DNA of 16,583 nt from Gemmatimonadota bacterium (GTDB taxonomy: Bacteria; Latescibacterota; UBA2968; UBA8231): assembly GCA_038153405.1 (NCBI GenBank), contig JAYOYH010000070.1, positions 2,632-19,214 of the forward strand, in the 5' to 3' direction. Position numbers and translations under genes: made by a program. Positions within the stretch are counted from its first letter, which is position 1; every line of letters starts with the position of its first letter. This document shows, piece after piece, positions 1 through 16,583 of this stretch. Under the pieces are notes generated by a model. It saw only the letters and a list, made by a program, of their open reading frames with translations, had not been told where the DNA came from and did no database searches.

Positions 1-244
1 CGCGCACGTCCTGAATGTCCTGCTTCAGCTCGCCGCGCACGTCGTGCAGCTCGCTGCGCACGTCCTGAATATCTTTCTTCAGCTCGCCGCGCATGTCGTG
101 CAGCTCGCTGCGCACGTCCTGAATATCTTTCTTCAGCTCGCTGCGCAGCTCGCGTATGTCCTGGTGCAAATCCTGGATATTCTCGCGTAGCAGAGTCACA
201 ACGAGCGGAAATTCTTCTGGAGTCGAAGGGCGCGATTCACTCAT
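1..244 (-). CDS. Coiled-coil repeat protein (DUF1640/CCDC90-like), 3' end outside the window
   Basis: Translated by hand from ATG at 244: MSESRPSTPEEFPLVVTLLRENIQDLHQDIRELRSELKKDIQDVRSELHDMRGELKKDIQDVRSELHDVRGELKQDIQDVR..., open to the window edge. SD-like GAGGA lies ~8 nt upstream. Hydrophobic periodicity is typical of a coiled coil. The family label is an inference from the repeat style. Confidence 0.8.
   Translation of the reverse strand, partial: MSESRPSTPEEFPLVVTLLRENIQDLHQDIRELRSELKKDIQDVRSELHDMRGELKKDIQDVRSELHDVRGELKQDIQDVR
3..146. repeat. 54-bp in-frame tandem repeat (about 2.7 copies visible; 18-aa unit ELKKDIQDVRS-ELHDxRG)
   Basis: Units beginning cgcacgtcctgaat start at 3, 57 and 111 (period 54) and are nearly identical. 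Confidence 0.95.
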
Positions 245-301: not shown

Positions 302-317
302 AGCAAGGACAGTGCCA
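302..317 (-). promoter_or_regulatory. Sigma54 (-24/-12) promoter upstream of the coiled-coil gene
   Basis: Minus strand reads TGGCAC-TGTCC-TTGCT. GG (316-315) and GC (304-303) are exactly 10 nt apart. The site is intergenic, correctly oriented and ~58 nt upstream of the ATG at 244. Confidence 0.75.
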
Positions 318-418: not shown

Positions 419-1771
419 CTACCCCAGTCCCCATTCCTTCATCTTGCGCCACAGCGTCGTGCGGTGCATACCGAGCCTGTCTGCCGCATCTGAGCGATTC
501 CAGTGGCACTGCTCGAGCACTTCGACTACCCGCTCGCGCTCGGGTCGCAGCGGCGTGGCGGAAGGCACTGAGACCACCATCCGCTCGCGATGCAAATGCG
601 CTGGAAGACACTCGGGCATTAGCAACTGACCACGGCACTTGATAAAGGCATGCTCGATGGCATTTTCCAGTTCGCGCACATTGCCGGGCCACTCATGATC
701 GAGCAGCACGGCTAGCGCGGCCTGGTCAATGGCCTCAATTTGCCGCCCCGTGCGCGCGTTGTATATATCTATGAAATGCTGTACCAGCAGCGGAATGTCT
801 TCCTTGCGCTGGCGCAGTGGCGGTAGCTCGATCGGCATGACGTGCAGCCGATAAAATAGATCTTCGCGAAAGCGGCCCTCGGCAATGAGCGCGCGCAGGT
901 CGCGATTGGTCGCGGCAATTACCCGCACGTCAATGGCAATGGTATCGCTGCTACCGACGCGCTCGATTTCGCGCTCCTGCAGCACGCGCAGCAGTTTGAG
1001 CTGCACGCCCAAACTGATATCGCCGATTTCGTCGAGAAATATCGTGCCGCCATGCGCTCGTTCAAAGCGCCCAATCTTATCGCGCACCGCACCCGTGAAG
1101 GCACCGCGCACGTGGCCAAACAATTCGCTCTCCAGCAAATTTTCAGAAAGAGCGGAGCAGTTGACCTTTACAAACGCACTCTCCTTCCGATGGCTACTCT
1201 CGTGCACGGCAGCAGCGACCAGCTCTTTGCCCGTGCCGCTCTCGCCCAAGATCAGCACGGTCGCGTCGCTGTCAGACAGGTCGTCTACCAGCTGATACAC
1301 CTCGCGCATGCGGTGGTCTTTGCCGACCATCTCGTGGAAATGCCCACGCGCCTCTAGCTGCTGGCGCAGCGTTTCCAATTCAGTATTATCTCGCAGGATC
1401 GCCACCACGCCCCGCTCTTGTTCATACTCGTCGCGCAAAAGGCGCGTCGACACGGTTAGATGGCGCCGACGGCCCTGCCGATCTACGACGACGACCTCCA
1501 AACCGTTAGTATCGCGGCGCTGAGCAAATAGCGCAGACAGCCCTTCTTCGCCGCCGTGTCCTAGCACTTCGGCGCACGACTCGCCAACGGCTTCCTGACG
1601 AGTATAGCCGATAATGTGCCGAGCCGCTTCGTTCAGGTTGCTCACGCGCAGATCGAGGTCAACGGCAATAATGCCGTCGGCTACCGAATTGAAAATGGCC
1701 TCTAGGTTTTGCCGCTGCATCATGCACGACTGCAGCTGGTCAACACTGCCTCTAATACGCTCTACGCTCAT
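419..1771 (-). CDS. Sigma54-dependent transcriptional activator (PAS + AAA+ + Fis-type HTH)
   Basis: N-terminal PAS ([13 protein letters not shown]...[10 protein letters not shown]), Walker [16 protein letters not shown], intact GAFTGA loop, Walker [27 protein letters not shown]-terminal HTH ([16 protein letters not shown]). No receiver domain. ATGA overlap with the RND stop. Confidence 0.96.
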
Positions 1772-4700
1772 TGCGCTCTCCGCTGTTGCCGTTTCTCCAC
1801 CATAAAGTAAAGCACGGGCACGGCCATGCGCGACAGCAGCAGAGAGGCGACCTCTCCAGCCATCAGCGAAATGGCCAGGCCCTGAAAGATCGGGTCAAAG
1901 AGAATGACCGAAGCACCAACGATCACCGCCGCAGCCGTTAACAGCATCGGGCGAAAGCGCACCGCACCGGCATCGACCACGGCCTCTTCGAGCGGCATGC
2001 CCTCGCTCAGGCGCAGCTCGATAAAGTCGACGAGAATAATCGAATTGCGCACCACGATACCAGCGCCGGCGATAAATCCGATCATCGACGTGGCGGTAAA
2101 AAAGGCATCGAGCCCACCGTGCGCCGGCATAATGCCCACCAGCGAAAAGGGAATGGCCGACATGATGACTAGCGGCACAATAAAGGATTGGAACCACGCC
2201 ACCACGAGAATGTAAATGAGAATCAACACCGCTCCAAAGGCGATGCCCAAGTCGCGGAACACCTCGTAGGTAATGTGCCACTCGCCGTCCCACTTCATCG
2301 CCAACTTGTCCGTATAAAAAGGCTGCTGGCCGGTGAACTGTTCCAGCGCATATCCCTCAGGCAACTCCAGCGCGTCGACCTTTTCCCCCAATTCCATTAT
2401 GGCGTATACCGGACTTTCAAACTCACCGCCCACATCGGCCGTTACATAGACGACGGGCATCAGATTTTTGTGAAAAATGCTGCGCTCATTCTCTTCCTTT
2501 TCCATGCGCACTAGCTGGCCGAGCGACACCATATCGCCGCTCGACGTCGGCATTTTTATATCCATCAGTTCGTCTACGTGCGAACGGTCGACCAGCGGCA
2601 GGCGCAGCTGTATGTCGAGATCCTCTACCTCCGTTGGCTGATGGACTAATCCCACCTCATAACCTGCTACTGCCATAGCCAACGTTTGGGCGATAGACTG
2701 CGAAGAAATGCCGCTGAGCGCGGCCTTCTCGCGATCGACGACAAAGCGGTACTTGTCCTGTTTTTCTTCTGCATACCAGTCTACGTCGACCACGCCCTCG
2801 GTCTCTTCAAAGATCGCCCGCACCTGCTGGGCGAGGGCCAACTGGCGCTCGTAGTCGGGTCCGTAGATTTCGGCAACTAGCGTCTGGAGCACGGGCGGTC
2901 CCGGTGGCACTTCAGCCACCTCGATACGGGCCCCATAGCGCTCGGCGATCGCCGTCAGATGCGGGCGAACGCGCTTGGCTACGTCGTGGCTCTGCTCGCT
3001 GCGCTCGTGCTTGGGCAGCAAATTGACCTGTATATCGGCGACGTTGGCTCCGCGGCGCATAAAATAGTGGCGCACTAGCCCGTTGAAGTTAAATGGACCA
3101 GACGTGCCCGCGTAGACTTGGTAGTCCACTACTTCTGGCACACTCCCTAAATAGATCCCCATCTCCTGAGCCATGGCCGCCGTCTCTTCGAGCGTCGTGC
3201 CCTCCGGGGCGTTGACCATCACCTGAAACTCACTCTTGTTGTCAAAGGGCAGCATCTTGACCACCACGAACTTCACGCCAACCAACGCCATGGCACCCAG
3301 CAGCAGTACGACCATGCCGACGAGAAAAATCGCGCGCGTCTTCGCCCCGCGCAGCAGCGGCTGCATGGCGCGACGATAGAGCTTGGTCAACATCCCTTCG
3401 TCCTCGTCGCCGTGCGCGCCTTCGCGCTTGAGCAGGCGCAGCGCAGCCCACGGCGTTACGACAAAAGCAACCACCAGAGAAAAGAGCATAGCAGCCGATG
3501 CACCCACGGGAATGGGGCGCATGTAGGGCCCCATCAAGCCGCCGACAAATGCCATTGGCAGGATGGCTGCAATCACCGTCATTGTCGCCAAGATCGTCGG
3601 GTTGCCCACTTCGTCTACCGCCTCGACTGCGATATCGGTCAGCGATCGTTCTCTGTTGCCGGGCATGCGAAAATGGCGCACGATATTCTCAACCACGACG
3701 ATCGCATCGTCGACCAAAATGCCAATGGAAAAAATCAGGGCAAAGAGGGTGATGCGGTTGAGAGTATACCCATACAGGTAAAACGTGAAGAGGGTCAGAC
3801 CCAGCGTCACGGGGATGGCAATGCCTACCACGCCGGATTCGCGAAATCCCAGTGTTAGCCAGATCAGCAAGATGACCGATGCCGTGGCCAGGCCCATGTG
3901 AAAGAGCAGTTCGTCCGATTTTTCGCGCGCTGTTTCACCGTAGTTGCGCGTCGTCACTACCTGCACATCGCCGGGAACGACGACTCCTTTGAGCAACTCA
4001 ACCTTTCTCAGCACCTGCTGAGCCAACACGGTGGCGTTGGTCCCCTTGCGCTTGGCTACCGACAGCGTCACTGCCGGCTGCGTCTCGCCGCGTCCGCTGC
4101 CAAATCGCACATAGCTGTTGGGCTCTTCCGGCCCATCGAGTATTTGCGCAACGTCCCTCAGGTAGACCGGCCGCCCCTCGTATGCGCTAACGACAATCTG
4201 ACCGATTTCATCGGCACCCTGTAAAAAGCGCCCCGTCTCGATAATCACTTCTCTGTTCAGCTCGCTGATGCGGCCAGCCGGAAGTTGATAGTTGGCTCCC
4301 TCCAGGGCGTCAGCAACGGCAGCCGGCGAAATGCCGTAGGCGGCCAGCCGATCGACGGAGAGTTCAATGCGCAGCTGGCGGCGCAAACCGCCGATCAGCT
4401 GGGTCTGCGAAACGTCGATGATCTGCTTGACCTCTCTCTCTACCTCGGCGGCTATGCGACGCAGGGCAAAACTATCATAGGTATCGCTCGTAAAAGTGAG
4501 CGCTAAAATGGGCACGTCATCTATGGAGCGCGGTTTGACCAACGGCCTCGATACGCCCGTTGGAATCAGATCAAAGTTGGCGTAGAGCTGGTTGTATGTC
4601 TTGAGAATGCTGTCCTCTTCGTCTTCGCCGACAAAGAAGCGCACGATGACCATGCTCTGACCGTTGCTCGACGTGGAGTACACGTACTCCACGCCGGGTA

Positions 4701-4938
4701 TTTCCCACAGCAGCTTTTCCATCGGGTAGGTGACGCGCTGCTCGACCTCTTTTGCACTGAGGCCCGGTGCCTCCACAAAGACGTCGACCATAGGCACGAT
4801 AATCTGCGGCTCCTCTTCGCGCGGCGTTTGCAGCAGGGCGAATCCGCCCAACAACAGCGAGGCAACGATTAGCAGCGGCGTCAGCTTGGAGTTGATAAAG
4901 AAACCGGCTAAGCGACCGGCAACGCCTGTACTAGCCAT
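1768..4938 (-). CDS. RND efflux permease (AcrB/AcrD/AcrF family)
   Basis: 1056 aa with RND topology. TM4 [16 protein letters not shown]10 [22 protein letters not shown]-terminal [17 protein letters not shown] upstream. Confidence 0.96.
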
Positions 4939-6004
4939 TGGAGCGCACCTCCACCAAACGACCCGCGCGCAGGTCGGCGGACGGCCCTAAGACCACCTGG
5001 TCTCCCTCGTTGAGTCCGGAAAGGACTTCGAAATCGTCGCCTAGGCGATCGCCTAGGCGCAGCCAGCGCAGTTGGGCACGCCCCTCGGCAACGACGTAGA
5101 CGCCCTCCAACTGTCCCTTGCGCACGAGAGCGGCTGCTGGAACCAGCAGCGCGCTGCGCGGCGCTTTCGGCAGCAGCGCGCGTGCGAACATGCCCGATCC
5201 AATGCGCCCGTCGACGTTGCCAATGGCAATTTTTGCGCGGAACGTGCGGCTGCGCGGATCGGCCGCCTGCACCTGCGCCAGCACGCGGCCATCGACCCGC
5301 CTGTCGAGCGCAGCAATCTCCACCTGGACCCGCTCACCGGCAGCGACGCGCCGATGCTCGGGCAGCAGCACTTCCACCTTGAGCGAGTCGAGTTGCTCAA
5401 GGATAAAAAGCGGCGCTCCGGGTGCAGCCATATCGCCCACCTGTGCAAATTTACGCACGATATATCCATCAAACGGCGCGGCAATGGCGCTGTAGTCGAG
5501 CTGCACAGAAGCTTGGACAAGTGCCTGACGTGCTGCCTTCTCAGCCGACTCGGCGCGAGCAAAGGCCGTTTCGGCATCGTCGAGCATCTGCTGCGAGGCC
5601 GCCTGTTGCTCAAATAAGTTTCGCAGACGTACCGCCGTTTTTTCAGCCAGCCGGCGCGCGCTGCGCGCTGCGCCCAATTCGGCTTGGGCCCGTGCATGAG
5701 CCGCCTGTAGCGCCGCGTCTTCCAAGCGCACGAGCACCTGTCCGGCCGACACGCGCTGCCCCTCGTCGAAATCGGCTGCGACTACCCGTCCCATTAGCTG
5801 GGCAGCGGCCGTGGCGCGCGCAAAGGGCTCGGTTGTGCCGACGACGGACGCTGTCGAAGCAATCTGACTGCGCTGCACCGACTGCACGCGCACGCTCAAG
5901 GCCGCCTCTTCACGCAGTCCCGGATATTCGGAATGCCCTTCGCAGGCCGTTAGAAACAAATAGCTGGAGACGACCGCAGTCATCACATAGTGCATCGGCT
6001 TCAC
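4931..6004 (-). CDS. RND periplasmic adaptor (membrane-fusion lipoprotein)
   Basis: Lipobox LTAC at residue 21; lipoyl halves ([14 protein letters not shown] / IAAPFDGYI) around an alpha-hairpin; [23 protein letters not shown] start in a GTGA overlap with an upstream GGGAGA SD. Confidence 0.93.
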
Positions 6005-7347
6005 TGTTGATCTCCCATTTGATATTCAAGTATGCTCCCCGCGGCTAGCTCCAAGGCAGCCAGACCGACGCGCACATCGCGCTGGGCCTGCAAATAGCCC
6101 AAGCGCGCCGCCGTCAGGGCCGTGCGCGCATCGAGTAGCTCCGTGGCGGTAACCATGGCCTCACCGTACTGCAGCTGAGCGATGCGACGGCGCTCCGCTG
6201 CCAGTTCTACGCCCTGCTGACGCGCGGCAACGCGCTCAAGGGCGGCCGCCAGCGCGCGATGGGCCGTGCGCACCTGGCGTTCAACCTGTGCCCGCAAGAA
6301 ATCCAGCTGGGCATGCGCCTGTCCGCGCTGGGCCACCGCGTGGCGCACCTGACCAACGGTGGCAGCTGCCGGCAGCTGCCAGACCATTATCGCGCCCACT
6401 GTCCAGCTATCGCCCTGGCGCTCTAACGGCGCATCGGCATCGAGAGCTGCCCTAGCAAAGGCGCTCAGCTGTGGCCAGTGAGCTGCTTTAGCCGCGCCCA
6501 CGCTGCTTCGCGCCGCTTCAAGACCGAGCTTGGCCACCTGCAGGTCGTCCCGCATCTCAAGCGCTCCTGCGACCAACTCTCCGAGCGGCGGCAGGTTGAC
6601 GCGGCCAGACAGCGTCTGCGTGAGCTCAAGCGGTGCGGTCGCCGCCATGCCCATCAATAGACTGAGTCCCTCGCTAGCGGCGGCGACCCCGTCAGCCGCC
6701 GACCGCATCTCTAGATCGGCTTCCAGCGCGTGCAGTTGAGCGGCCAACCGCTCCGTGCCCAGCGCCATACCCTGCTGGTAGCGCGCATCGACTACATCGG
6801 CATCGGCGTGCGCCAGTTGGGCACTTTCTTGCGCCGTCTCAAGCGCCGCCTGTGCCAGCACGAGATTCCAATAGGCCGCAGCCGTCTGCTGGCGCACCTC
6901 GGCGCGCTGCCGGGCTAGCTGCGCCTCGGCCAACTGAGCGCCCGCTTGTGCCCGACGCCGGTTATACAGCGCACGTCCACCGCTAAAAAGCGGCTGAGAG
7001 ACCTCTACCTGTGTTTGAAAATTGGTGATCGCGTCCGGCGCGTTGAGACGATCAATGGCAAAATCGGCCTGGCGAAAGCGCTCCTGCTTGAGCCGAAAGC
7101 CAAACGCATTGACCGCGTCGTTGCTGCGCACCGCCTGCTCGCTGATCTGCACGCTGGGCAAAAAACCGGACCAACTCTCCAGTGCGCGCGCGCGCGCCGC
7201 CTCTACTTGACTCGAGGCTGCCTTCAGCAGCGCGTTGTCCCGCTGGGCGCGCTCCACGGCATCCTCCAGCGAAAGGGCCGATGCCCCCTCGACCCACACC
7301 AGCGCAGCAACCGGCAGCGCCCATCTGATAAACAACCCATAGCTCAC
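6001..7347 (-). CDS. TolC-family outer membrane efflux protein
   Basis: Signal peptide (…EGASA/LSLEDAV), FLPSVQIS, VSQPLFSGG, AAYWNLV, WPQLS and ELLDA motifs across two OEP repeats; sits directly upstream of the MFP and RND genes. Confidence 0.92.
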   Translation of the reverse strand: MSYGLFIRWALPVAALVWVEGASALSLEDAVERAQRDNALLKAASSQVEAARARALESWSGFLPSVQISEQAVRSNDAVNAFGFRLKQERFRQADFAIDRLNAPDAITNFQTQVEVSQPLFSGGRALYNRRRAQAGAQLAEAQLARQRAEVRQQTAAAYWNLVLAQAALETAQESAQLAHADADVVDARYQQGMALGTERLAAQLHALEADLEMRSAADGVAAASEGLSLLMGMAATAPLELTQTLSGRVNLPPLGELVAGALEMRDDLQVAKLGLEAARSSVGAAKAAHWPQLSAFARAALDADAPLERQGDSWTVGAIMVWQLPAAATVGQVRHAVAQRGQAHAQLDFLRAQVERQVRTAHRALAAALERVAARQQGVELAAERRRIAQLQYGEAMVTATELLDARTALTAARLGYLQAQRDVRVGLAALELAAGSILEYQMGDQQ

Positions 7348-7682
7348 GAAACACTCTCCTCTATGAACGAATCCAATGCCGTTTCCAACTCGCGTTGCGA
7401 CAGCACGCCTACGCGCCGATAGACCGGCTCGCCACCGCGCATAAACAGCAGCGTCGGCAGAGCGTGCACATCGTACTTGGTTGCTAGCAGCGGCGCCTCA
7501 TCGACGTTGACACCGCACACTTTGACGCGCCCGGCATACTTTTGCGCCACGGCCTCTAAGACGGGTTTGAGCTGCTGGCAGGGCGCACACCACGCCGCCC
7601 ACAGATCGACCAGCACCCACTCCGCGCCGATCAGTTCTCCCTTGTAATTGTTGTCGTTTACTACGCACACCGAAGCCGACAT
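7344..7682 (-). CDS. trxA: Thioredoxin
   Basis: VLVDLWAAWCAPC active site, NVDE, cis-Pro motif ALPTLLF; 112 aa from ATG 7682. I prefer this start over GTG 7706 given thioredoxin size and the predicted sigma54 transcription start near 7717. The symbol denotes family, not proven orthology. Confidence 0.9.
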   Translation of the reverse strand: MSASVCVVNDNNYKGELIGAEWVLVDLWAAWCAPCQQLKPVLEAVAQKYAGRVKVCGVNVDEAPLLATKYDVHALPTLLFMRGGEPVYRRVGVLSQRELETALDSFIEESVS

Positions 7683-7727
7683 AGCGCTTATCCAGACGTT
7701 GCACACTGCGTTTAGGCCGAACTACTA

Positions 7728-7743
7728 CGCAAGCATCGTGCCG
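7728..7743 (-). promoter_or_regulatory. Sigma54 (-24/-12) promoter of the trx-tolC-MFP-RND-activator operon
   Basis: Minus strand reads cGGCACG-atgc-TTGCg. GG (7742-7741) and GC (7730-7729) are exactly 10 nt apart, ~46 nt upstream of the thioredoxin ATG. Confidence 0.8.
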
Positions 7744-7767
7744 GGGCGAGAGAGAATGGCGTATTCG

Positions 7768-7820
7768 CTTATAAAACCAATATAAACAAATATTTATTTT
7801 GTTTGGGATATGTATTTTAG
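7768..7820. promoter_or_regulatory. AT-rich tract with IHF-like site between the sigma54 promoter and the candidate enhancer
   Basis: Strongly AT-rich patch in a GC-rich window. AAACAAATATTTA (7784-7796) matches WATCAANNNNTTR with one mismatch. Confidence 0.5.
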
Positions 7821-7862
7821 TGCTGCAATTGATTTGCTATGCAGCTTTTTGATGCGAATTTT

Positions 7863-7879
7863 CGTTGCATATTGCAACG
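7863..7879. promoter_or_regulatory. Candidate upstream activating sequence (enhancer) for a sigma54 activator
   Basis: Perfect inverted repeat CGTTGCA-tat-TGCAACG about 150 nt upstream of the predicted start site. Extra GCAAC half-sites occur at 7885-7894, and a GCTGCA-N12-TGCAGC pair at 7822-7845. Confidence 0.65.
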
Positions 7880-7901
7880 TTATGGCAACGCAACTGTTTC
7901 A

Positions 7902-10415
7902 CTATTCGTCCCTCAACCTCTTTGGCGCTGCACCTTCATCAGCGTGTTGCACCCTCAATTCGCTTATGCGTTGGTCTAGCTCTGCCGCCTCTTTGGCCAA
8001 GCCTAGCCGCCTCGCTTCGCTCAGTAAGAGGTTCAGGTCGGTTCTTTTTTGCTCGTTGCTCAGCTGTGGATCCAGCGCTGCGGCAGCCCCAAGCAGTGCC
8101 AATCCCACAGCATAATCGCCCATACTAAAGGCTGTTTTTCCAGCTAGTTTATAGATCGGTTGCTGCGTGGCATCCAATTCGAGCGACGCCAGCCACCATT
8201 CTAATGCTTCTCGCTGGCTCTCTCTAAGAAAGGCCTGGGCCGCCAACGCGTTATAAAACTCGGCGCGTGGATCAACCTGCGCCGCTAGGCGATAAACCTC
8301 ACTGGCCATTTCATCCCATCCACCGCTTCCCAAGTGTCTGGCGATGGATGCATAGCTGTCGGCCAGTTGCACTTTCTGGTATGGGCGCATAAACGCGCGC
8401 TTGTCAACACCGTCCTTAAGTGCCATGATGGCCAAAGTAGGCAGGTCGAGCAAGAGAAGGCTTGTCGCCGACGCCCATGGGATATATTGCGCCATCAACT
8501 CAGTCTGTATATAGCCGCGATCGTAGTTGAGCATACTGCTCTCAACGCCTTCCTTATCTCCCATCTGCTGGTAGATGCCCGCTTTTATCAAAGCCGTTAG
8601 CAGCATGTCGGGATAGCGCTGCTCCAATGCCGCTGCACGCGCGGCCCATTGTTCGCTGCGTGCACCGCTGCGCCATTCGACAGATAGCGCCTTCAGCGCA
8701 TCGTCTGCACAGCGCTCGTCGAGTTCCATCTCACGCTGCCAGCGCTGCCAGTCTGCCGCGAGATCCTCCGTGCGCTGCAGCACCCACACACCGGGATGAT
8801 CAAAACCGTAAAACGATGGTTCGGCGCCCTCGCCAACAAATTTCCAGCGTCCCCAAGCCGGATCGACTTTGTCGCGGCGCACCGGCGTAAAGCCTAGTTC
8901 GCCCCGCAGCAGTCGCGCATAAAACTCGGAGAGTACTGGGTAGCGGTCAGGGGCGGCTGTGTATTGCACGTAGCGGTTGGCGTCCACGATCCAGATATAA
9001 TCGGCACCTGAGACGCGACTATAGAGATACTGGCGCCTAGCTTCGCAGAGCAAGTAGCCGCGCGTTCCAAAAATCCGGCTGCTATTTATGTATGACTTGC
9101 TATACGCTGCTCTACCTACAAATGCCCCGGTAGAAAAGCCGCCGTTTTCCACGGCGATGCGGCTGCCAGCGGGTGCGTTGGCGTATAACCAGCGCGCCGA
9201 CTGCAGACGGCTGTCATCCACCGCGTAGATACGCGCAAAGGCCACGCCATAGGCTGCCGTATAGCCCAGCACCCATGCCAAGAGCGCCAACGCGGGCCAG
9301 CGCCACCGACGGCGCAGCGCCTCTCCGGCCGCCGACGCCAGCAGCGCTAGGGCGGGCAGCAAGGGCAGCAGGTAGCGCACGTGCTTGGTGTGCAAGGGAC
9401 CGATACTGGCGAAGTAAAACACCGACCACAGCAGCAACAACGCGTGCGGCCAGCAGCGCCGCCACAGGGCATACCCCATGCCCACCAGCAGCGCACAGGT
9501 CATCGGCCAGCCGACGGCTTGGGGCCACAGCTGCGTCCAATAGTGGAGGTAGGGCGTCGTGTATAAGTCGAAGAGCGTCCATGGCTTTAGCACTTGGCCT
9601 CGCGCAACCTGCAGTGAATAGGCAAAATCGTCCGAGCTCTGCGCGTGCTGCATGAGCTCACTGTTGAAAAGTAGATAGGGTTGCAGAGACAGCAACACGA
9701 TCATTGCGACGAGCCCGGCCAGCCACAAATCTGCTCGGCGCAGACGCGCTAGCACGGCATTGGGACCATCTTTCATCGCATAGACGACAGCCAGCGCCAC
9801 GCCGCATAGCGCCCCATTAAGCCGGGTGGCCGTCGCCAAGCCGATGTAAAGGCCGCAGGCTAAATACCAACTGCGCCGTTCCGTGCTCAGCGCCTGCAGG
9901 CCGCAGGCCAACGCCGCTATGCTCAAAAAAACAAAGACTCCATCAACTGTATAGAAATGCGCCTGCTGTATGGCCAGCGGCGCACAGGCGACGGCCAGCG
10001 CGGCCCACAGGCCGACGCGCAATTTAAAGTGCGCCTTTCCAATCCACCATACGACGACTAAAGAGGCGATAGAAAACGCGATGGCCAGCAGGCGAACGAT
10101 GACAAATAATACCGGGCGCATTGCAGCTTCGTCGAACGAGATCTCGTCGCTAAAAAAAAGACCGACCACGCCCAGCGCAGCGCGGGCGGCTAGCATGGGA
10201 AAGACGCCGTAAGCCGTCAGCGGCGGATCGGTCGTGCTGTGCAATGCCAAGGCGGCGCGCAGCAGGGTCTCTTCGTCCGGATGAAATGTGTGGAATGCCG
10301 CGTAGTGCTCTCCACCCGGGGGGGAGTACTCAGCGTGGCCACGCGTCAGGCCCGTCAGGCGCAGCGCGGCGCCCAATAGCAATATTAGTAGGAGTAAAAT
10401 GTGTTCTCTGCGCAT
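7902..10415 (-). CDS. GT-C fold membrane glycosyltransferase (ArnT/PMT_2-like) with C-terminal TPR-like region
   Basis: First TM followed by FHPDE, QQAHFYTVDG, GLATATRL, RYLLPLLP; many TM helices; helical Ala-rich tail (AEFYNALA…EALEWW…SLELD). Start placed at ATG 10415 (MRREHILL; 837 aa) rather than 10514. Confidence 0.8.
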   Translation of the reverse strand: MRREHILLLLILLLGAALRLTGLTRGHAEYSPPGGEHYAAFHTFHPDEETLLRAALALHSTTDPPLTAYGVFPMLAARAALGVVGLFFSDEISFDEAAMRPVLFVIVRLLAIAFSIASLVVVWWIGKAHFKLRVGLWAALAVACAPLAIQQAHFYTVDGVFVFLSIAALACGLQALSTERRSWYLACGLYIGLATATRLNGALCGVALAVVYAMKDGPNAVLARLRRADLWLAGLVAMIVLLSLQPYLLFNSELMQHAQSSDDFAYSLQVARGQVLKPWTLFDLYTTPYLHYWTQLWPQAVGWPMTCALLVGMGYALWRRCWPHALLLLWSVFYFASIGPLHTKHVRYLLPLLPALALLASAAGEALRRRWRWPALALLAWVLGYTAAYGVAFARIYAVDDSRLQSARWLYANAPAGSRIAVENGGFSTGAFVGRAAYSKSYINSSRIFGTRGYLLCEARRQYLYSRVSGADYIWIVDANRYVQYTAAPDRYPVLSEFYARLLRGELGFTPVRRDKVDPAWGRWKFVGEGAEPSFYGFDHPGVWVLQRTEDLAADWQRWQREMELDERCADDALKALSVEWRSGARSEQWAARAAALEQRYPDMLLTALIKAGIYQQMGDKEGVESSMLNYDRGYIQTELMAQYIPWASATSLLLLDLPTLAIMALKDGVDKRAFMRPYQKVQLADSYASIARHLGSGGWDEMASEVYRLAAQVDPRAEFYNALAAQAFLRESQREALEWWLASLELDATQQPIYKLAGKTAFSMGDYAVGLALLGAAAALDPQLSNEQKRTDLNLLLSEARRLGLAKEAAELDQRISELRVQHADEGAAPKRLRDE

Positions 10416-10528
10416 TTCCTCATATTCCGCGTATCTGCTAATATATAGGGGACCACGCCTGGCATGCACCATTTGGTTCAGCGGGTGATGGTGGCTACTT
10501 TTGCAAGGTTGCACGCGAAATACTGCTT

Positions 10529-11413
10529 ATGACGACGACCACTTCTAGCGCATGGCGCGCCGACGCCCTGCTCTTGCTAACGGCCATTATCTGGGGCTTT
10601 GCCTTTGTCGCCCAGCGCCTGGGCATGGAGCACATCGGCCCGTTCTATTTCAACGGCGTGCGCTTTGCCCTCGGCACCCTGACGCTGCTGCCCTTTGTCG
10701 TGCGCAACAGCCGTGGAGCGCTGCGCACGGCCCTGGCCCGCACGGGTCCGGCGGCGGGGCTGGCTGGACTCGTGCTCTTTGCCGGTGCCTCACTGCAGCA
10801 AATCGGCATCGTCTATACCACGGCCGGCAAGGCCGGCTTTATCACGGGACTCTACGTGGTGCTCGTGCCCATCATGGGGCTATCCCTGGGCGCGCACACC
10901 CGCTGGAACACTTGGGCTGGCGCCCTAGCGGCAGCCTGCGGCCTGTACCTGCTCAGCGTGCAGCCACCGTTTTCCATCGGCCTAGGGGACAGCTTGGTCC
11001 TCATCAGCGCGCTATTTTGGGCCCTGCACGTGCTGCTGATCGGACGCATCGCCGGCCGGCACGATTGGGCACTGCTGGCCGCGGGACAATTCTTCACCTG
11101 CGCCCTGCTCAGCCTGGGCGTCGCCCTGTGTATTGAAGACGTTGCCCCACAGCGCATCGCCGACGCGGCTGCTCCCATTTTCTACGGCGGCGTGCTTTCG
11201 GTCGGCATCGCCTATACGCTGCAGGTCGTGGCACAGCGCAGAGCGCCGCCGGCCCACGCCGCCGTGATCCTCAGCCTCGAAGCCGTCTTTGCCGCGCTGG
11301 GTGGCTGGCTGCTACTCGACGAGCACTTATCGCCGCGCGGGCTAGTCGGCTGCATTCTAATGCTAGCCGGCATGCTCGTCTCGCAGTGGCGCGCCGGGGA
11401 TAACAGAGCCTAG
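10529..11413 (+). CDS. DMT/EamA family transporter
   Basis: 294 aa, ~10 TMs. IWGFAFVAQR, RFALG, AGKAGFITGLYVVLVP, GDSLVLISA, AYTLQVVAQ, ILSLEAVFA. Confidence 0.95.
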   Translation: MTTTTSSAWRADALLLLTAIIWGFAFVAQRLGMEHIGPFYFNGVRFALGTLTLLPFVVRNSRGALRTALARTGPAAGLAGLVLFAGASLQQIGIVYTTAGKAGFITGLYVVLVPIMGLSLGAHTRWNTWAGALAAACGLYLLSVQPPFSIGLGDSLVLISALFWALHVLLIGRIAGRHDWALLAAGQFFTCALLSLGVALCIEDVAPQRIADAAAPIFYGGVLSVGIAYTLQVVAQRRAPPAHAAVILSLEAVFAALGGWLLLDEHLSPRGLVGCILMLAGMLVSQWRAGDNRA

Positions 11414-12261
11414 TACGAGCGATTATCCGCCGCGTACTCAACGTTGCCGCCGGGCGGCCCGCCAATGGCCCACACGCCGCGAAAAAGCGTGCGGCGCCGC
11501 GGCGGCATCGCCTCTATCGCCTCGTCGTTCAGATTGAGCCGGTGCCACTGCGCCCAAATCGAATTGTAGCAGTTAAACACCGCGCAGCGCGGGTTGTCGG
11601 GGTTGGTCCAGTGATTGGCCGCGTGCACCAGGCTCTCACTGAAGATGACTACCGAACCGGGCGGACAGCTATAATCGTCCATCATCGCGCGCATAGATTC
11701 CTCCCACGGCGAACCGCCGATATTGGGCCGGTAGCGATCGGAGCCGCCGTAGTTAAAGTGCGCCTTGTGCGAACCACTGAGAAAAGACGTGGCACCCTGA
11801 CCGGACTTGACCTCTTCTAACTCCCAGACCACGCGCGTCAATCCGGAGAAAATCTTACCGCCGGCCACCTGGTAGCGCATCGCATTGGCCTGCTGCGGCG
11901 GGCGCACCACGTGCGGCATGCCGTTGTCGCTGCGCTCGCTGGTGTCCCATCCCGGCGGACGCACCGTCGTAAAGGAGCCCTCGCAGCGAAAGCTGTAGCA
12001 ATCGTCGCGCACAAAAGGTTCCTCTGCGAGAATTTCCGATAGAACACCGACGATAGCCGGATGGTCCAGCAGGCGCTGTAGGGAAGGGCCGTAGCTCTGC
12101 TTGGCACCGCCGTAGACCTCGGCCTTCATCTCCTCAAGTTCGCGCTCGTCCGTCAGAACAGCCGGCAGGAGAATCCAGCCGCGCAGGTCAAAGAAGAATT
12201 TCTGCTCTTCGCTCATGGGCACTGCGGGCGTGGCGTAGTCGCCCCGATCGTCTAGTTGCAT
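11410..12261 (-). CDS. Phytanoyl-CoA dioxygenase (PhyH)-family Fe(II)/2-oxoglutarate oxygenase-like protein
   Basis: EEQKFFFDLRGWILLPAVL, LLDHP, GATSFLSGSHK, PGSVVIFSESLVH…W…R motifs. SD AGGAGA upstream. Confidence 0.82.
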   Translation of the reverse strand: MQLDDRGDYATPAVPMSEEQKFFFDLRGWILLPAVLTDERELEEMKAEVYGGAKQSYGPSLQRLLDHPAIVGVLSEILAEEPFVRDDCYSFRCEGSFTTVRPPGWDTSERSDNGMPHVVRPPQQANAMRYQVAGGKIFSGLTRVVWELEEVKSGQGATSFLSGSHKAHFNYGGSDRYRPNIGGSPWEESMRAMMDDYSCPPGSVVIFSESLVHAANHWTNPDNPRCAVFNCYNSIWAQWHRLNLNDEAIEAMPPRRRTLFRGVWAIGGPPGGNVEYAADNRSY

Positions 12262-12323
12262 AGCATCTCTCCTGTCCAGTAAATGCGCTGAGCGCGTCTG
12301 TTTTCTTTGCTGGTATGCCGCCT

Positions 12324-12352
12324 AGTATAGCCTCTTGTCGCCCCGGCATCAA
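12324..12352 (-). promoter_or_regulatory. Sigma70-type promoter for the PhyH-like gene
   Basis: Minus strand TTGATG-17 nt-TATACT in the divergent intergenic region. Confidence 0.55.
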
Positions 12353-12405
12353 AAGCTGTTCTTTCTTAGCCCAAACAACAGACTACTCCAACCGAGGTGA
12401 ATCCC

Positions 12406-13242
12406 ATGAGCCGGCGGATCGGTTTCGTCGATTTTGACCTGAATAATTTTCACGCCGACGTCTATCTCAAGCTACTGCGCGGCGATCTGCAATCGCGCGG
12501 CTTTACCGTCGCCGGGGCCACAGCGCTTCAGGTCGAGCCAAGCAAAGCCTGGTGTGCCAACAACGGCGTGCCTTATTACGATGAAGTCGATGCACTCGAC
12601 GCACACGTCGATTGCTACGCCGTGCTGGCCCCTTCCAACCCAGAAGCGCACGAAGCGCTGTGTCAGCGCGTCTTTCCGCACGGCAAGCCGACCTACGTCG
12701 ATAAGACTTTTGCCCCCGACCTGTCTACCGCCGAGCGCATCTTTGCCCTGGCAGACCAGCACGGAGTGGCCATGCAAACGTCGTCGGCCCTGCGCTACAG
12801 CAACGTGCAGGAGCGCAGGGACCAATTGGAAAGCGACCTGCTGCACATCGTCACGTGGGGTGGCGGCTCTTCGTTTAGCGAGTATGCCATCCACCCGCTG
12901 GAACTGGCCATCAGCTGCATGGGCCCTGACGTAGAGCGCCTCTACCGGCGCGGCGCGGGCGAATGCGCTCAACTGCTACTCGACTTCCGCAACGACCGCA
13001 GCGCCGTCGTCAACGTCTATACGGGAGCCAGCACGCCCTTTGCCGCCGCGCTAACCACGGCCAAGGGCACCGACTACGTCGCCGTCGACAGCAGCGCGAT
13101 TTTTCGCAACACCGCCGCGGCCATGCTCGACCTGTTCGAAAGCGGCACTGCGGCCATCGACCGGCGCGAAACGCTGGCTATCCTCCGCGCGCTGGACGCC
13201 GCCAAGACGGATGCGGCGCGCGCGGGCTTTGTTTCCCTCTAG
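12406..13242 (+). CDS. Gfo/Idh/MocA-like oxidoreductase
   Basis: Rossmann-like N-terminus, VDCYAVLAPSNPEAH, GKPTYVDKTFA (EKP-equivalent), SSALRY, YAIHPLE. GAGGTG SD lies 6 nt before ATG 12406. Confidence 0.75.
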   Translation: MSRRIGFVDFDLNNFHADVYLKLLRGDLQSRGFTVAGATALQVEPSKAWCANNGVPYYDEVDALDAHVDCYAVLAPSNPEAHEALCQRVFPHGKPTYVDKTFAPDLSTAERIFALADQHGVAMQTSSALRYSNVQERRDQLESDLLHIVTWGGGSSFSEYAIHPLELAISCMGPDVERLYRRGAGECAQLLLDFRNDRSAVVNVYTGASTPFAAALTTAKGTDYVAVDSSAIFRNTAAAMLDLFESGTAAIDRRETLAILRALDAAKTDAARAGFVSL

Positions 13243-13278
13243 CATCCTGTTTGCAACGGCATAGATCGCGGAGCACCG

Positions 13279-13494
13279 ATGAGCGACCAACCAACCGATC
13301 GCTACAGCCGCGCCCTACCGCCCAACGACGGCGATATTTGGCGCATGGACTTTTCGCGCTTTAACCAGTATCGCGAAGCGCTGCCAGCCGACGACTCCGG
13401 CGCCTTTTTCTGGAGCCCGCACGGATCGCGCGACGCGCATATTCCCGAGTGCTTTCCCCTCATTCACTTCAGCCAAGAGCGGCTGCCGGGCTAG
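13279..13494 (+). pseudogene. Probable internally deleted remnant of a carbohydrate-binding family 9-like protein (71 aa)
   Basis: Good SD (GGAG) and ATG. Residues LPPNDGDIWRMDFSRFNQY…FWSPHGSRDAHIPECFPLIHFS resemble, from memory, the extreme C-terminus of CBM9-like proteins (P..GD.WR.NF.R…WSP…H.PE.F…F), which are normally several times longer. Confidence 0.6.
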
Positions 13495-13609
13495 GCCTAC
13501 CGCGAAGTTCACCCTATGCTGTATATTTGCCGCATTCGCATCCGTTGATCCTCGCATAGCGACCGCAAAAGCGTTCGCCGAACCCATTATTCTGGAAAGG
13601 CCCCCCGCT

Positions 13610-15409
13610 ACGAAACCGCTACGATTTCTCTACGGCTACGCCCGCCAATACGCCGGCGTTCTCACCATCACCGTCGTCAGTATGCTGCTCCTGGTCGGCG
13701 TGCAGCTGCTCATTCCGTGGATTATCAAAACCATGGTCGGCGCCATTACGGGAGTCGACGGCAATGTGCTGACTATGGAAAAGGTCACCGACCTGGCGCT
13801 GCTGGCCCTGCTCGTCTACGTGGCGCGCGCCTTTCTGCAGTTTCTGCGCAGCTATATGGCCCACGTAGCCGGCTGGGGCGTGGTCGCCGAAGCACGCAAG
13901 CTGATCTACGCGCACCTGCAGCGCCTATCGCTGCGCTTCTACGAGGATAAGCAGACGGGCCAGCTAATGTCGCGCGTGGTCAACGACTCCGACAAGTTCG
14001 AGCTGCTCATCGCCCACGCCATTCCCGACATCGCCGTCAACGTGCTGACGCTGATCAGCGTGACGGTCGTGCTCGTCAGCATGAACTGGCAGCTAACCCT
14101 GCTCAGCATGGTGCCCATTCCACTCATACTGGTTTCGCTGCGCCTATTTGCCCGCTACGTGCGACCGGCTTTCCGCGCGCGCCAGCAGGAACTGGGCGAA
14201 CTCAACGCCATTCTCAACGACAATATTTCCGGCATCCGCGAGATCAAAACCTTCACCCGCGAACATATTGAAACGCGCCGCATCGACGGGCGCATCGACC
14301 GCTATCGCGACTCGCTGCTGCACGCGCTCAAGATGATGGCCACCTTCCAGCCCTTTATTCAGTTTACCTCGGCGCTGGGCACCATTATCCTCATCTACTT
14401 TGGCGGCAAGCTGGCCTTTAATCATGTTCTTTCCGTGGCTGACCTGGTCGGCTTCTTCCTGTACCTAGAACTTTTCTACCAGCCACTACACCATCTCAGC
14501 GGCGCGTGGGAGCAGATCCAAGAAGCCTTGGCCAGTGCCGATCGCGTCACCGAGTTGCTCGACGAAATACCCGAGGTCGACGATGCGGCCGATGCTATTG
14601 CCCTGCCACTGCCCATTGGAGGTGCCATCCGCTTCAGCGGCGTGCGCTTTGGCTACATTCCGGAAGAGGCGGTGCTCGACAACGTCGACCTCGATATCGC
14701 CCCGCGCTCCACCGTAGCGCTCGTCGGTCCTACGGGCGTGGGCAAGACGACCCTGGCCGGGCTGATTCCGCGCTTTTACGACGTAGATGAGGGCAGCATC
14801 TCCATCGATGGCATCGACATCCGTCGCCTCTCGCTCGACAGCCTGCGCGGGCAGATCAGCATCGTGCTGCAAGATGTCTTTCTCTTTCACGGAACGGCGC
14901 GTGACAACATTCTATTTGGCCGCGCCGACGCCACCGAAGAAGAGGTCATCGCCGCCGCCCAGATCGCCAACGCGCACGACTTTATCAGCCAGCTGCCACA
15001 GGGCTATGACACCATTATCGGCGAGCGCGGTGTCAAGTTGTCGGGCGGTCAGAAACAGCGCTTATCTATCGCCCGGGCCGTGCTCAAGGACGCGCCGATT
15101 CTCATTTTAGATGAGGCCACTTCGTCGGTTGATACCGAGACCGAGCGGCTCATTCAGCAGGCCCTTGACCGGCTCATGCAGGGCAAGACGACGCTGGTCA
15201 TCGCCCACCGCTTGTCGACCATCCGCAACGCCGACCAGATCGTCGTGTTGGGCAACGGAGGCATTGCCGAGCGCGGCAATCACGACGACCTGATGGCGCA
15301 GCGCGGTCTCTACTGGCACCTCAATCAGGTGCAGCTGCAAGATCCCACGCTGGTGATTGAGGAGAGCGACGACGAGAATAGAGCCATGAGCGCGCGCATT
15401 CGCGCATAA
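13610..15409 (+). CDS. ABC exporter, fused permease/ATPase (MsbA/MdlB-like)
   Basis: 6-TM domain (HLQRLSLRFY, TGQLMSRV), Walker A GPTGVGKT, signature LSGGQKQR, ILILDEATSSVD, IAHRLST. The first in-frame ATG is 13682, but coding-like sequence extends to ACG at 13610 behind an SD. Confidence 0.93.
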   Translation, partial: TKPLRFLYGYARQYAGVLTITVVSMLLLVGVQLLIPWIIKTMVGAITGVDGNVLTMEKVTDLALLALLVYVARAFLQFLRSYMAHVAGWGVVAEARKLIYAHLQRLSLRFYEDKQTGQLMSRVVNDSDKFELLIAHAIPDIAVNVLTLISVTVVLVSMNWQLTLLSMVPIPLILVSLRLFARYVRPAFRARQQELGELNAILNDNISGIREIKTFTREHIETRRIDGRIDRYRDSLLHALKMMATFQPFIQFTSALGTIILIYFGGKLAFNHVLSVADLVGFFLYLELFYQPLHHLSGAWEQIQEALASADRVTELLDEIPEVDDAADAIALPLPIGGAIRFSGVRFGYIPEEAVLDNVDLDIAPRSTVALVGPTGVGKTTLAGLIPRFYDVDEGSISIDGIDIRRLSLDSLRGQISIVLQDVFLFHGTARDNILFGRADATEEEVIAAAQIANAHDFISQLPQGYDTIIGERGVKLSGGQKQRLSIARAVLKDAPILILDEATSSVDTETERLIQQALDRLMQGKTTLVIAHRLSTIRNADQIVVLGNGGIAERGNHDDLMAQRGLYWHLNQVQLQDPTLVIEESDDENRAMSARIRA

Positions 15410-15430
15410 GCGCGTATTGCACGGAAACAT

Positions 15431-15469
15431 AAAAAGAGGAGGCTACCTGTAGGACAGCCTCCTCTTTTT
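15431..15469. terminator. Rho-independent, potentially bidirectional terminator
   Basis: AAAAAGAGGAGGCT (15431-15444) and AGCCTCCTCTTTTT (15456-15469) form a perfect 14-bp inverted repeat with an 11-nt loop and flanking A/T tracts, just downstream of the ABC stop. Confidence 0.9.
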
Positions 15470-15534
15470 CTATATCCTCGCCCGGTCGCACAGTCCGTAT
15501 ATTACTCGCGTCACGCTTCCGACAGGAGAGATCC

Positions 15535-16583
15535 ATGTCTACAGACCGTTTTAGCAGGACCGTCGCCGCCTATGCCGACGCGGTTTTAGCGCACTGCGCG
15601 CAGGCCGAACTGCTGGCCGACGGCCTCGACCTGCAAACGCGTCAGGCCATTCTCTGGGGCGGTGAGTCCCTTTCCAATTTGGCCTGTCAGCAAAACTTCC
15701 TGCGCACGCTCGACGGACTGAACGCGCTCGGTTTAGCGAACTACGGCGCGCGTGCCGACGAGTGGATCGGCGCAGCCTTTGCCAAATTGCGCGATCCGTC
15801 CTCCGATCTGCTCTACTGGGGCGGCCACACCAGCTACGATCTGATCAACGATGCGCCCGTTATTGGCAACCACGAGCTCAAGTGCGTCTACCCGCACTAT
15901 GCCTACTTATACAGAGTGGATGCCGAAGCAACGCGGCGCTTTGTCGAGGCCTTCTGGCACGCCCACATTTGGGATTGGTCGACACTCCTTTTTAACCGCC
16001 ACGGCGAGTTTTCCGAATGGGAAGAAAAATGGCACGCGCCCTTTGCCGGCGGCCCCGTGCCCATCGTCGAAAACACGGCGCTGTCCTTTATCAATACCGG
16101 CAGTGACCTGATCCTGAGCGGCGGGCTGCTGCACGCCCTGTCGGGGAACGAGACGCCGCGGCGCGCTGCTGTCGCGCTGCTGTCGCGCTACGACCAGATA
16201 CGCCACCCCGAGACCGGGCTGGCCGGCTACCAGTTCAACCACCGCGATCCCTGCCGCGTGCGCGCCTCGTTCAAGAGCCCTCACGCCGAGCGCGACGACC
16301 TCAACGAAACCAGCGTGTTGACCAACGGCGTTATAAAAACGCGCTACGGGCGCGTCGCCGTTGCGCTGTGCAACCTTAGCGCCGCGCTGGGCGAGGAAAA
16401 GAGCGCACCCTTTCGCCAGTTCGTGCAGCGGGACCTGCGCGGCCTAGCCGAGCACTGCTACGACGCGCAAACGCACTGCTTCTATCCGGCGCTTAACGAC
16501 GGCACGCGCCTGCTGCCTGAATACGCCAACGAGGGCGTAGGCTACTGCCCACCGCAAAAGCTGCAGCCGGTGCCGGCCGACGG
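15535..16583 (+). CDS. Polysaccharide lyase family 2 pectate lyase (PelW-like), 3' end outside the window
   Basis: Translated by hand from ATG 15535 (SD AGGAG), open for 349 codons to the edge. PL2 motifs LLADG, SNLACQQNFLR, LLYWGGH, HELK, FVEAFWHAHIWDW…NRHG, LSFINTGSDLI, RHPETGLAGYQF. No signal peptide. Confidence 0.85.
   Translation, partial: MSTDRFSRTVAAYADAVLAHCAQAELLADGLDLQTRQAILWGGESLSNLACQQNFLRTLDGLNALGLANYGARADEWIGAAFAKLRDPSSDLLYWGGHTSYDLINDAPVIGNHELKCVYPHYAYLYRVDAEATRRFVEAFWHAHIWDWSTLLFNRHGEFSEWEEKWHAPFAGGPVPIVENTALSFINTGSDLILSGGLLHALSGNETPRRAAVALLSRYDQIRHPETGLAGYQFNHRDPCRVRASFKSPHAERDDLNETSVLTNGVIKTRYGRVAVALCNLSAALGEEKSAPFRQFVQRDLRGLAEHCYDAQTHCFYPALNDGTRLLPEYANEGVGYCPPQKLQPVPAD

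Follow-up and report, generated by a model that had tools for sequence, protein, structure and literature searches.

The window analysed here, a stretch of 16,583 nucleotides from the Gemmatimonadota bacterium assembly GCA_038153405.1 (contig JAYOYH010000070.1; Latescibacterota in GTDB), carries a likely sulfide-stress operon composed of a thioredoxin, a tripartite resistance-nodulation-division (RND) pump and a sigma-54 activator (Table 1). G000 designates the window's own genome (4.86 Mb) and C12, C20 and C44 its contigs; other G-numbers are genomes of the same class and L-numbers are loci. The five open reading frames (ORFs) of the operon all lie on the minus strand, and the ORF listing of the window leaves their earlier noted positions unchanged. 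Their products match the Pfam profiles of thioredoxin, OEP, an HlyD-type adaptor, ACR_tran and, for the last gene, PAS, Sigma54_activat and HTH_8. Neighboring genes overlap through GTGA at 7344-7347 and again at 6001-6004, through 8 nt at 4931-4938 and through ATGA at 1768-1771. ORFs, Pfam matches and junctions all agree with the overlapping five-gene operon, activator last, that the initial annotation had described.

Table 1 Features of the operon and its control region, in window coordinates
Feature	Position	Strand	Evidence or remark
Thioredoxin (WCAPC), dedicated paralogue	7344..7682	-	Pfam PF00085; open frame reaches 7706
TolC-family outer-membrane channel	6001..7347	-	PF02321
Periplasmic adaptor (membrane fusion protein, MFP)	4931..6004	-	TIGR01730 219.7 bits, above cut-off
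RND permease, separate DUF2892-associated clade	1768..4938	-	ACR_tran, trees, alignment
Sigma-54 activator: N-terminal helix, PAS, AAA+ with GAFTGA, Fis-type helix-turn-helix (HTH)	419..1771	-	Pfam, alignment, model
Sigma-54 -24/-12 promoter	7729..7743	-	Pattern match; also upstream in G001, G002, G004, G026, G035
Main enhancer: palindrome 7863-7879 plus extra half-site at 7884	7863..7890	.	Predicted activator sites, putative binding
Degenerate promoter-proximal half-site	7822..7828	.	Weak, putative
AT-rich tract from enhancer to promoter, candidate bending region	7773..7826	.	76% AT

The region upstream of the thioredoxin gene includes the -24/-12 promoter, AT-rich tract and palindromic enhancer proposed initially, and the promoter elements exceed chance. 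Among 2000 dinucleotide shuffles of this 219-nt region, 6 contained a -24/-12 site, 1 contained the same number of half-sites and none contained both. The exact sequence GTTGCA-N3-TGCAAC at 7864-7878 occurs nowhere else in the 4.86 Mb genome. The whole architecture recurs upstream in the five relatives that share the promoter (Table 1). AT-rich tracts are present in genus relatives too, and the tract of the window does not match the IHF pattern. The genome carries a gene with an RpoN box. A sigma-70 promoter scan found 0 promoters and a terminator scan stayed at chance level (8 seen vs 7.7). Two RNA runs, both from one study, gave short, near-identical pieces of low depth and, among the pieces listed, none spans a gene junction.

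The hexamers TGCAAC and GTTGCA rank highest and occur in all of 14 promoters from 12 other genomes. A matrix derived from these 14 promoters gives its two highest scores, among the 453 relaxed -24/-12 sites of the window's genome, to C12:23274 (57.7) and to the window promoter (50.8), the next site scoring 27.1; both top sites were known before the matrix was built, its seed was chosen by hand, and three of the training promoters are orthologues of the window promoter. The C12 site precedes the only DUF2892 gene of the genome. This gene lies inside the pump operon in 8 class genomes. In the window's genus it is located apart from the pump, as one copy in each of the 5 pump-bearing genomes, and it was not found in the 3 pump-less genomes of the genus (90-98% complete). 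The unlinked copies carry half-sites and a -24/-12 site, recognized by pattern in four of the five and as a variant in the fifth. Most simply, the DUF2892 gene would have moved out of the operon and kept its control. A single cysteine of its product, Cys49, is invariant (29/29 aligned sequences). The operon had been presented as a self-contained module. This description has to be abandoned, because the motif ranks the unlinked C12 DUF2892 promoter, which has the same architecture, and the window promoter first.

The activator displays the features expected of a sigma-54 activator, an AAA+ domain with Walker motifs and a C-terminal HTH among them (PF00158, 240.5 bits; a PF02954 match; GAFTGA). 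Its AlphaFold model is of middling quality (pLDDT 70.8, pTM 0.40) and shows an N-terminal helix at residues 3-29; Foldseek searches with this model matched AAA+ domains only. Cys16, located in the helix, is invariant in the 25 aligned members of the subfamily and Cys66, in the PAS domain, is found in 24 of them. The subfamily forms one clade (support 97) whose deepest branch includes a pump-linked copy (G081). Named close homologues (3 named rows among 24 close matches) come from Ca. Latescibacterota or Handelsmanbacteria. A profile search of 1.84 billion representatives gave only multi-PAS proteins among its best 150 and an Atlas search gave generic PAS clusters, results that leave the range of the subfamily unbounded. 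Most of 24 additional metagenome loci repeat counted genomes or one another.

Among the 132 class genomes, a sample of incomplete genomes and kin that are not independent, the activator was detected in 17, the permease in 16 and both in 13. The 17 genomes contain 18 activator copies, 13 of them beside pump genes. Seven are the last gene, after the permease (G000, G001, G002, G004, G005, G026 and G128, where the neighboring permease is a fragment at a contig edge) and six lie upstream of the pump genes (G013, G020, G027, G035, G081, G123). Among the six last-gene copies other than that of the window, the 4-nt permease/activator overlap is kept in G001 alone. Three of the 18 copies (G020, G094, G106) precede a -24/-12 site with the same enhancer, followed by thioredoxin and metallo-beta-lactamase (MBL)-rhodanese (persulfide dioxygenase/rhodanese) genes. 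This persulfide operon continues with rhodanese-DUF2892, TauE, YeeE and YedE in G094 and G106 and ends at the contig end in G020. The G031 copy adjoins a lone rhodanese gene and the G080 copy a contig break. Activator and thioredoxin therefore behave as one unit with two kinds of target, the link to the second being a single event. Positive autoregulation, initially proposed, is not a general trait, because the activator is last in just 7 of the 18 copies and upstream of the promoter in 9.

Gene order varies further among the loci. In L165 and L173 it is activator, promoter, thioredoxin, OEP, DUF2892, MFP and RND. In L146:3650-14242 (G081), with radical SAM genes upstream, the activator precedes two sigma-54 promoters, whose targets are XdhC-like, DUF302 and multiheme cytochrome genes, then OEP, DUF2892, MFP and RND; L181, too, seems to have an XdhC-like gene close to the activator. 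Loci of genus g14 (L135, L136, L138, L139) have an opposite-strand rhodanese gene between activator and persulfide operon and a TetR gene upstream, joined there in three of the loci by a two-permease RND system of another clade. In L137 and L144 a second, receiver-type sigma-54 activator stands directly upstream of the cysteine-bearing one, accompanied by a histidine kinase in L144.

The ATG at 7682, rather than the GTG at 7706, is the probable start of the thioredoxin, since homologues begin at the ATG position. It reaches 95.0 bits against TIGR01068 (cut-off 96.8). Tested as a housekeeping TrxA, it carries WCAPC instead of WCGPC and falls outside the TrxA clade. The WCGPC thioredoxin of the genome (C20) lies outside the group formed by the activator-linked thioredoxins (support 0.968), which comprises all of these except that of G026. 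In the tree the window protein adjoins the thioredoxins of the persulfide operons (support 0.905). The gene is first in 10 of the 18 activator units and missing from four units seen whole (G004, G013, the G020 pump copy and G081).

The permease scores below every NCBIfam permease cut-off (TIGR00915, 304 vs 940). Its best PDB match is MdtB (E 1e-69), and it shares 24-26% identity with AcrB, CusA and MdtB of E. coli. Together with 57-94% identical relatives from many phyla and 39-58% identical plasmid relatives, it forms one clade with a long stem (FastTree support 1.0; SH-aLRT 100 and stem 0.9 in a quick IQ-TREE run on 30 of the 58 rows). The trees separate this clade from AcrB, MdtBC and CusA, and the expectation that the permease stands apart from ordinary multidrug and metal pumps holds. 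The proton relay is intact: D410, D411, R964, R994 and T1001 match D407, D408, K940, R971 and T978 of the HAE1 pumps, with Arg for Lys.

Gene neighborhoods were compared within 6 kb of the pump in 78 distant loci (L014-L091; L013 was excluded as a duplicate of G005). DUF2892 occurs in 46 of these, or 30 of 44 when only loci with wide flanks are counted. ArsR is present in 14, OsmC in 13, DUF302 in 6 and thioredoxin in 3; one locus includes a sigma-54 activator of any kind and none a member of the present subfamily. No -24/-12 site with at least 2 half-sites was found in the 78 loci. Thirteen plasmid loci, hand-picked from 57 matches, contain DUF2892 (9 loci), ArsR (7) and sulfur enzymes or transporters (6). 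These counts in distant and plasmid loci single out DUF2892 as the conserved partner of the pump; thioredoxin and activator are lineage-specific additions. The initially suggested linkage of thioredoxin and activator to the pump thus stands within the class, where activator, thioredoxin and promoter travel together, but not beyond it (3/78 and 0/78).

The proximity of permease relatives to sulfur genes, also predicted at the outset, was recovered in the plasmid loci, where clade members adjoin DUF2892, rhodanese, YeeE and SQR-like (sulfide:quinone oxidoreductase) genes. The Paracoccus pump locus has MBL, YeeE, DUF6691 and sulfur transferase genes close by. According to tables matched by hand, 21 of the 32 SQR-like genes on plasmids have a clade permease within about 4 kb; the query was an FAD oxidoreductase from one pump locus. 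Both this choice of query and the presence of near-identical strains bias the count, and the SQR label is putative. Seven of nine ArsR proteins beside plasmid clade pumps share an aligned cysteine pair, which we take to match the BigR pattern. Proteobacteria and Cyanobacteria show a strong sulfur context, the closest, Acidobacteria-rich set a weak one. None of 5 other RND loci, a small control from which 3 more were dropped without an anchor, has sulfur markers. In many Acidobacteria among L014-L091 the pump operon is flanked by a pair of extracytoplasmic function (ECF) sigma factors and by OsmC or DUF302 genes. Genes for cytochrome bd come after the pump in L046, L080 and L081 and lie near it in two plasmid loci.

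Taken together, these observations suggest, with a probability of roughly 0.6, a sulfide-stress operon in which the activator senses sulfane sulfur and binds the enhancer and the proton-driven pump expels excess reactive sulfur. Inside the cell sulfide gives rise to persulfide or polysulfide. This conversion would be the first step of the proposed mechanism. The persulfide or polysulfide would then modify Cys16 and/or Cys66 and relieve the inhibition of the AAA+ domain by the PAS domain. The activator, bound at TGTTGCA/TGCAACA sites, would open the window promoter and the C12 DUF2892 promoter, as conservation of the motif suggests. The tripartite pump, possibly with the small one-cysteine DUF2892 membrane protein, would carry a sulfur species, or a toxic product derived from sulfide, out across the outer membrane, and the thioredoxin might reduce protein persulfides or reset the sensor. 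As the last gene in this genus the activator could also provide positive feedback, a design that is not conserved. Our confidence differs between these steps: it is strong that the activator would act on the window and DUF2892 promoters, moderate that its signal would be sulfane sulfur, moderate to weak that Cys16 or Cys66 would be the sensing residue and that the pump would export sulfur species, and weak for the role given to thioredoxin.

A published case of similar gene context is the Azospira suillum operon Dsui_3440-3443 (DUF2892, RND, SQR, MFP), which according to the available portion of PMC5358917 is induced by H2S. Mean fitness in control, 1 mM H2S and spiked conditions is given there as -0.76, -2.21 and -2.69 for the RND mutant and -0.81, -2.12 and -2.63 for the MFP mutant, with little change for the mutant of the intervening SQR gene (-0.75, -0.86 and -1.17). 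These data suggest that a pump of such gene context protects against sulfide.

Several observations weigh against a sulfur-sensing activator and a sulfur-exporting pump. The sulfur-responsive system of the initial annotation gains from the tie between activator and persulfide-detoxifying genes, but this tie exists in one lineage: the persulfide-operon copies form one nested clade of a single genus (100% support) and so represent one event. The window protein has C16 and C66 only, with Ser79 at the position of a second PAS cysteine found in other members. No SQR was found in the window's genome with two queries. A row of SulP-like permease (a label given by reading), YeeE, YedE and MBL-rhodanese genes at G000:C44:22400-26555 was rejected as a regulon member; it lacks the promoter motif, its upstream -24-like and -12-like elements being spaced 2 nt too wide, and therefore counts against a complete sulfur regulon in this genome. 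The permease is devoid of cysteine, and so has none to carry sulfur. Sulfur enzymes or transporters lie within 6 kb in just 3 of the 78 closest distant loci, and two clade members are accompanied by TetR or AraC without sulfur genes. In Azospira, as far as the accessible text of PMC5358917 goes, the DUF2892 mutant is almost unaffected (-0.08, -0.15 and -0.33), deletion of the operon leaves the H2S oxidation rate unchanged, and the authors interpret the pumps as exporting metal sulfides; that its permease belongs to the present clade is itself presumed from its DUF2892 and SQR gene context.

The activator might alternatively be a degenerate OrpR-type redox sensor, which would answer to the general oxidation of thiols or to redox potential and might or might not carry a metal or Fe-S cofactor; thioredoxin and pump would then serve a general disulfide/electrophile response. 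The L090 activator, which has the C-x8-C-x3-C pattern, is the sister of the subfamily (96% support). Cys66, an acidic residue at +2 and the second PAS cysteine, about 13 residues on in 13 of 25 members, match the first and third OrpR positions, and the leading place of thioredoxin in 10 of the 18 units and the OsmC genes flanking 13 of the 78 distant pumps fit such a response. The middle OrpR cysteine, however, occurs in none of the 25 members, the window protein lacks the third as well, and where the subfamily has other targets these are genes specific to persulfide. We consider this explanation rather unlikely.

The regulon might instead answer sulfide while the pump exports metal-sulfide or metal-thiolate complexes or damaged lipophilic compounds, which is quite unlikely. 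It agrees with the Azospira authors' own view in the portion of PMC5358917 available and with a permease lacking cysteine for sulfur, and 94-97% of 31 clade members keep the histidines H347, H422, H624, H651 and H940. On the other hand, the permease does not qualify as an HME (CusA/CzcA) pump by clade, model score or methionine triad, the acidic sites of CzcA/ZneA lying outside this comparison: it scores 294 against the CzcA/CusA model (cut-off 701), M574, V633 and E676 occupy the columns of the CusA triad, of which the first is variable, and its relay is AcrB-like. Moreover, three other Azospira MFP genes show little fitness change in sulfide, with no sulfide-specific defect, in the same portion of PMC5358917. 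An ordinary efflux system of unrelated substrate, captured behind the promoter with thioredoxin and activator as passengers, is highly improbable: regulators do vary outside the class (ArsR in 14/78, ECF sigma factors, TetR, AraC) and thioredoxin is missing from four whole units, but the activator-pump association in 13 genomes, kin included, survives changes in gene order and the deepest branch (G081), and the displaced DUF2892 gene kept the same promoter type.

Switching by reactive sulfur, as proposed above, would make the activator a new type of bacterial sulfur-stress sensor. Cys16 could pair across a parallel helix dimer, judging by eye from the spacing. A bolder proposal, which remains doubtful, is that of a new class of sigma-54 persulfide sensor with a Cys16-Cys16 polysulfide bridge between subunits, controlling a four-component exporter in which DUF2892 hands sulfane sulfur to a cysteine-free RND pump for discharge outside the cell. 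If true, it would assign a function to an entire RND clade that is so far uncharacterised and offer zero-valent sulfur an exit route from Gram-negative bacteria. The subfamily is in any case a candidate sensor whose cysteines are arranged differently, and it comes with a defined binding motif and a regulon of two promoters. Members of the pump clade occur in many phyla; the clade has neither a close solved structure nor a named family model. The locus sharpens the question of how bacteria export excess sulfane sulfur.

The remaining genes of the window surround this operon. On the minus strand, 7902-10514 encodes an 870-residue PMT-type glycosyltransferase with a long C-terminal part and ends 12 nt above the last enhancer half-site. 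Read-through from this gene could be a source of basal expression in the window's genome only. It is absent in G002 and G004, where an EamA gene directly faces the promoter. The region 10529-16581 comprises genes for an EamA transporter, a PhyH-family dioxygenase, a GFO oxidoreductase, an ABC exporter and a periplasmic pectate-lyase-like protein (Pfam); synteny of the first four extends to G002 and G004, and they are apparently unrelated to the pump operon. At the other end, a small repetitive coiled-coil gene with 54-nt repeats (2-244, minus strand) runs into an assembly gap. It is preceded by a second -24/-12 site (303-317, minus strand) without the enhancer motif, and both site and gene are also found behind the activator in G005. 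This site was rejected as an activator target (rank 49 of 453 by the enhancer matrix) and may be driven by another of the 13 sigma-54 activators of the genome.

A literature search, with most subscription papers outside it, brought up no account of the activator subfamily, of its motif or of this operon. The sensor subfamily, the motif and the split regulon thus appear undescribed, as had been suggested for the system as a whole, but a link between the pump and sulfur is already in print (available parts of PMC12423496 and PMC5358917). The reactive-sulfur sensors described fall mainly into three classes, CstR, SqrR/BigR and FisR (excerpts of PMC7315123 and PMC13467558). FisR resembles the present activator as a sigma-54 activator beside persulfide dioxygenase and TauE genes. 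According to PMC8614764, in the part available, the Cupriavidus pinatubonensis protein senses through a C53-C64 tetrasulfide; this C-x10-C pair is absent from the window activator. FisR-type target genes (persulfide dioxygenase, TauE) are recognized by context beside 3 of the 18 activator copies, all of one lineage, and not in the window genome. In contrast to the FisR regulon, the circuit here is directed chiefly at an RND pump with thioredoxin and DUF2892 and without SQR. The A. baumannii FisR, found with pdo-sqr-tauE (PMC7315123, in part), was recognized by this context at L190:6926-8194 and translated from its first Met. Its N-terminal domain does not match the subfamily profile at E <= 10. 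It also has no cysteine before the AAA+ domain, and for lack of one its way of sensing sulfur may differ from that of the Cupriavidus protein, if it senses sulfur at all. Two plasmid loci examined for FisR proved to contain YeeE and PDO genes and no activator.

OrpR of Desulfovibrio vulgaris (PMC8359166, in its available part) shares the PAS-AAA+-HTH layout, the first PAS cysteine and the acidic residue at +2. The subfamily differs by the lack of the C-x8-C-x3-C triad, by an extra invariant N-terminal cysteine and by its targets, and its motif is TGCAAC/GTTGCA instead of the GGGCG...CGCCC palindrome reported there for OrpR. By the membership tests run, the circuit would be FisR-like in its logic and yet the activator appears to belong to neither FisR nor OrpR.

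On the side of the pump, AcrAB-TolC, MdtABC and CusCBA have the same tripartite layout and proton-relay residues, but the permease differs from theirs by its 24-26% identity, its separate clade and its scores below all model cut-offs. The Azospira operon, for which no regulator is described in the accessible portion of PMC5358917, also joins an RND pump to DUF2892, is sulfide-induced and is needed for fitness in sulfide; its four genes include SQR and lack the thioredoxin and channel genes of the window operon. Other RND pumps lie beside sulfane-sulfur-responsive, two-cysteine ArsR repressors of the BigR/SqrR/SoxR type and are described as likely transporters of sulfur compounds (PMC12423496, as far as available). 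There the regulator is a repressor; here a sigma-54 activator takes its place.

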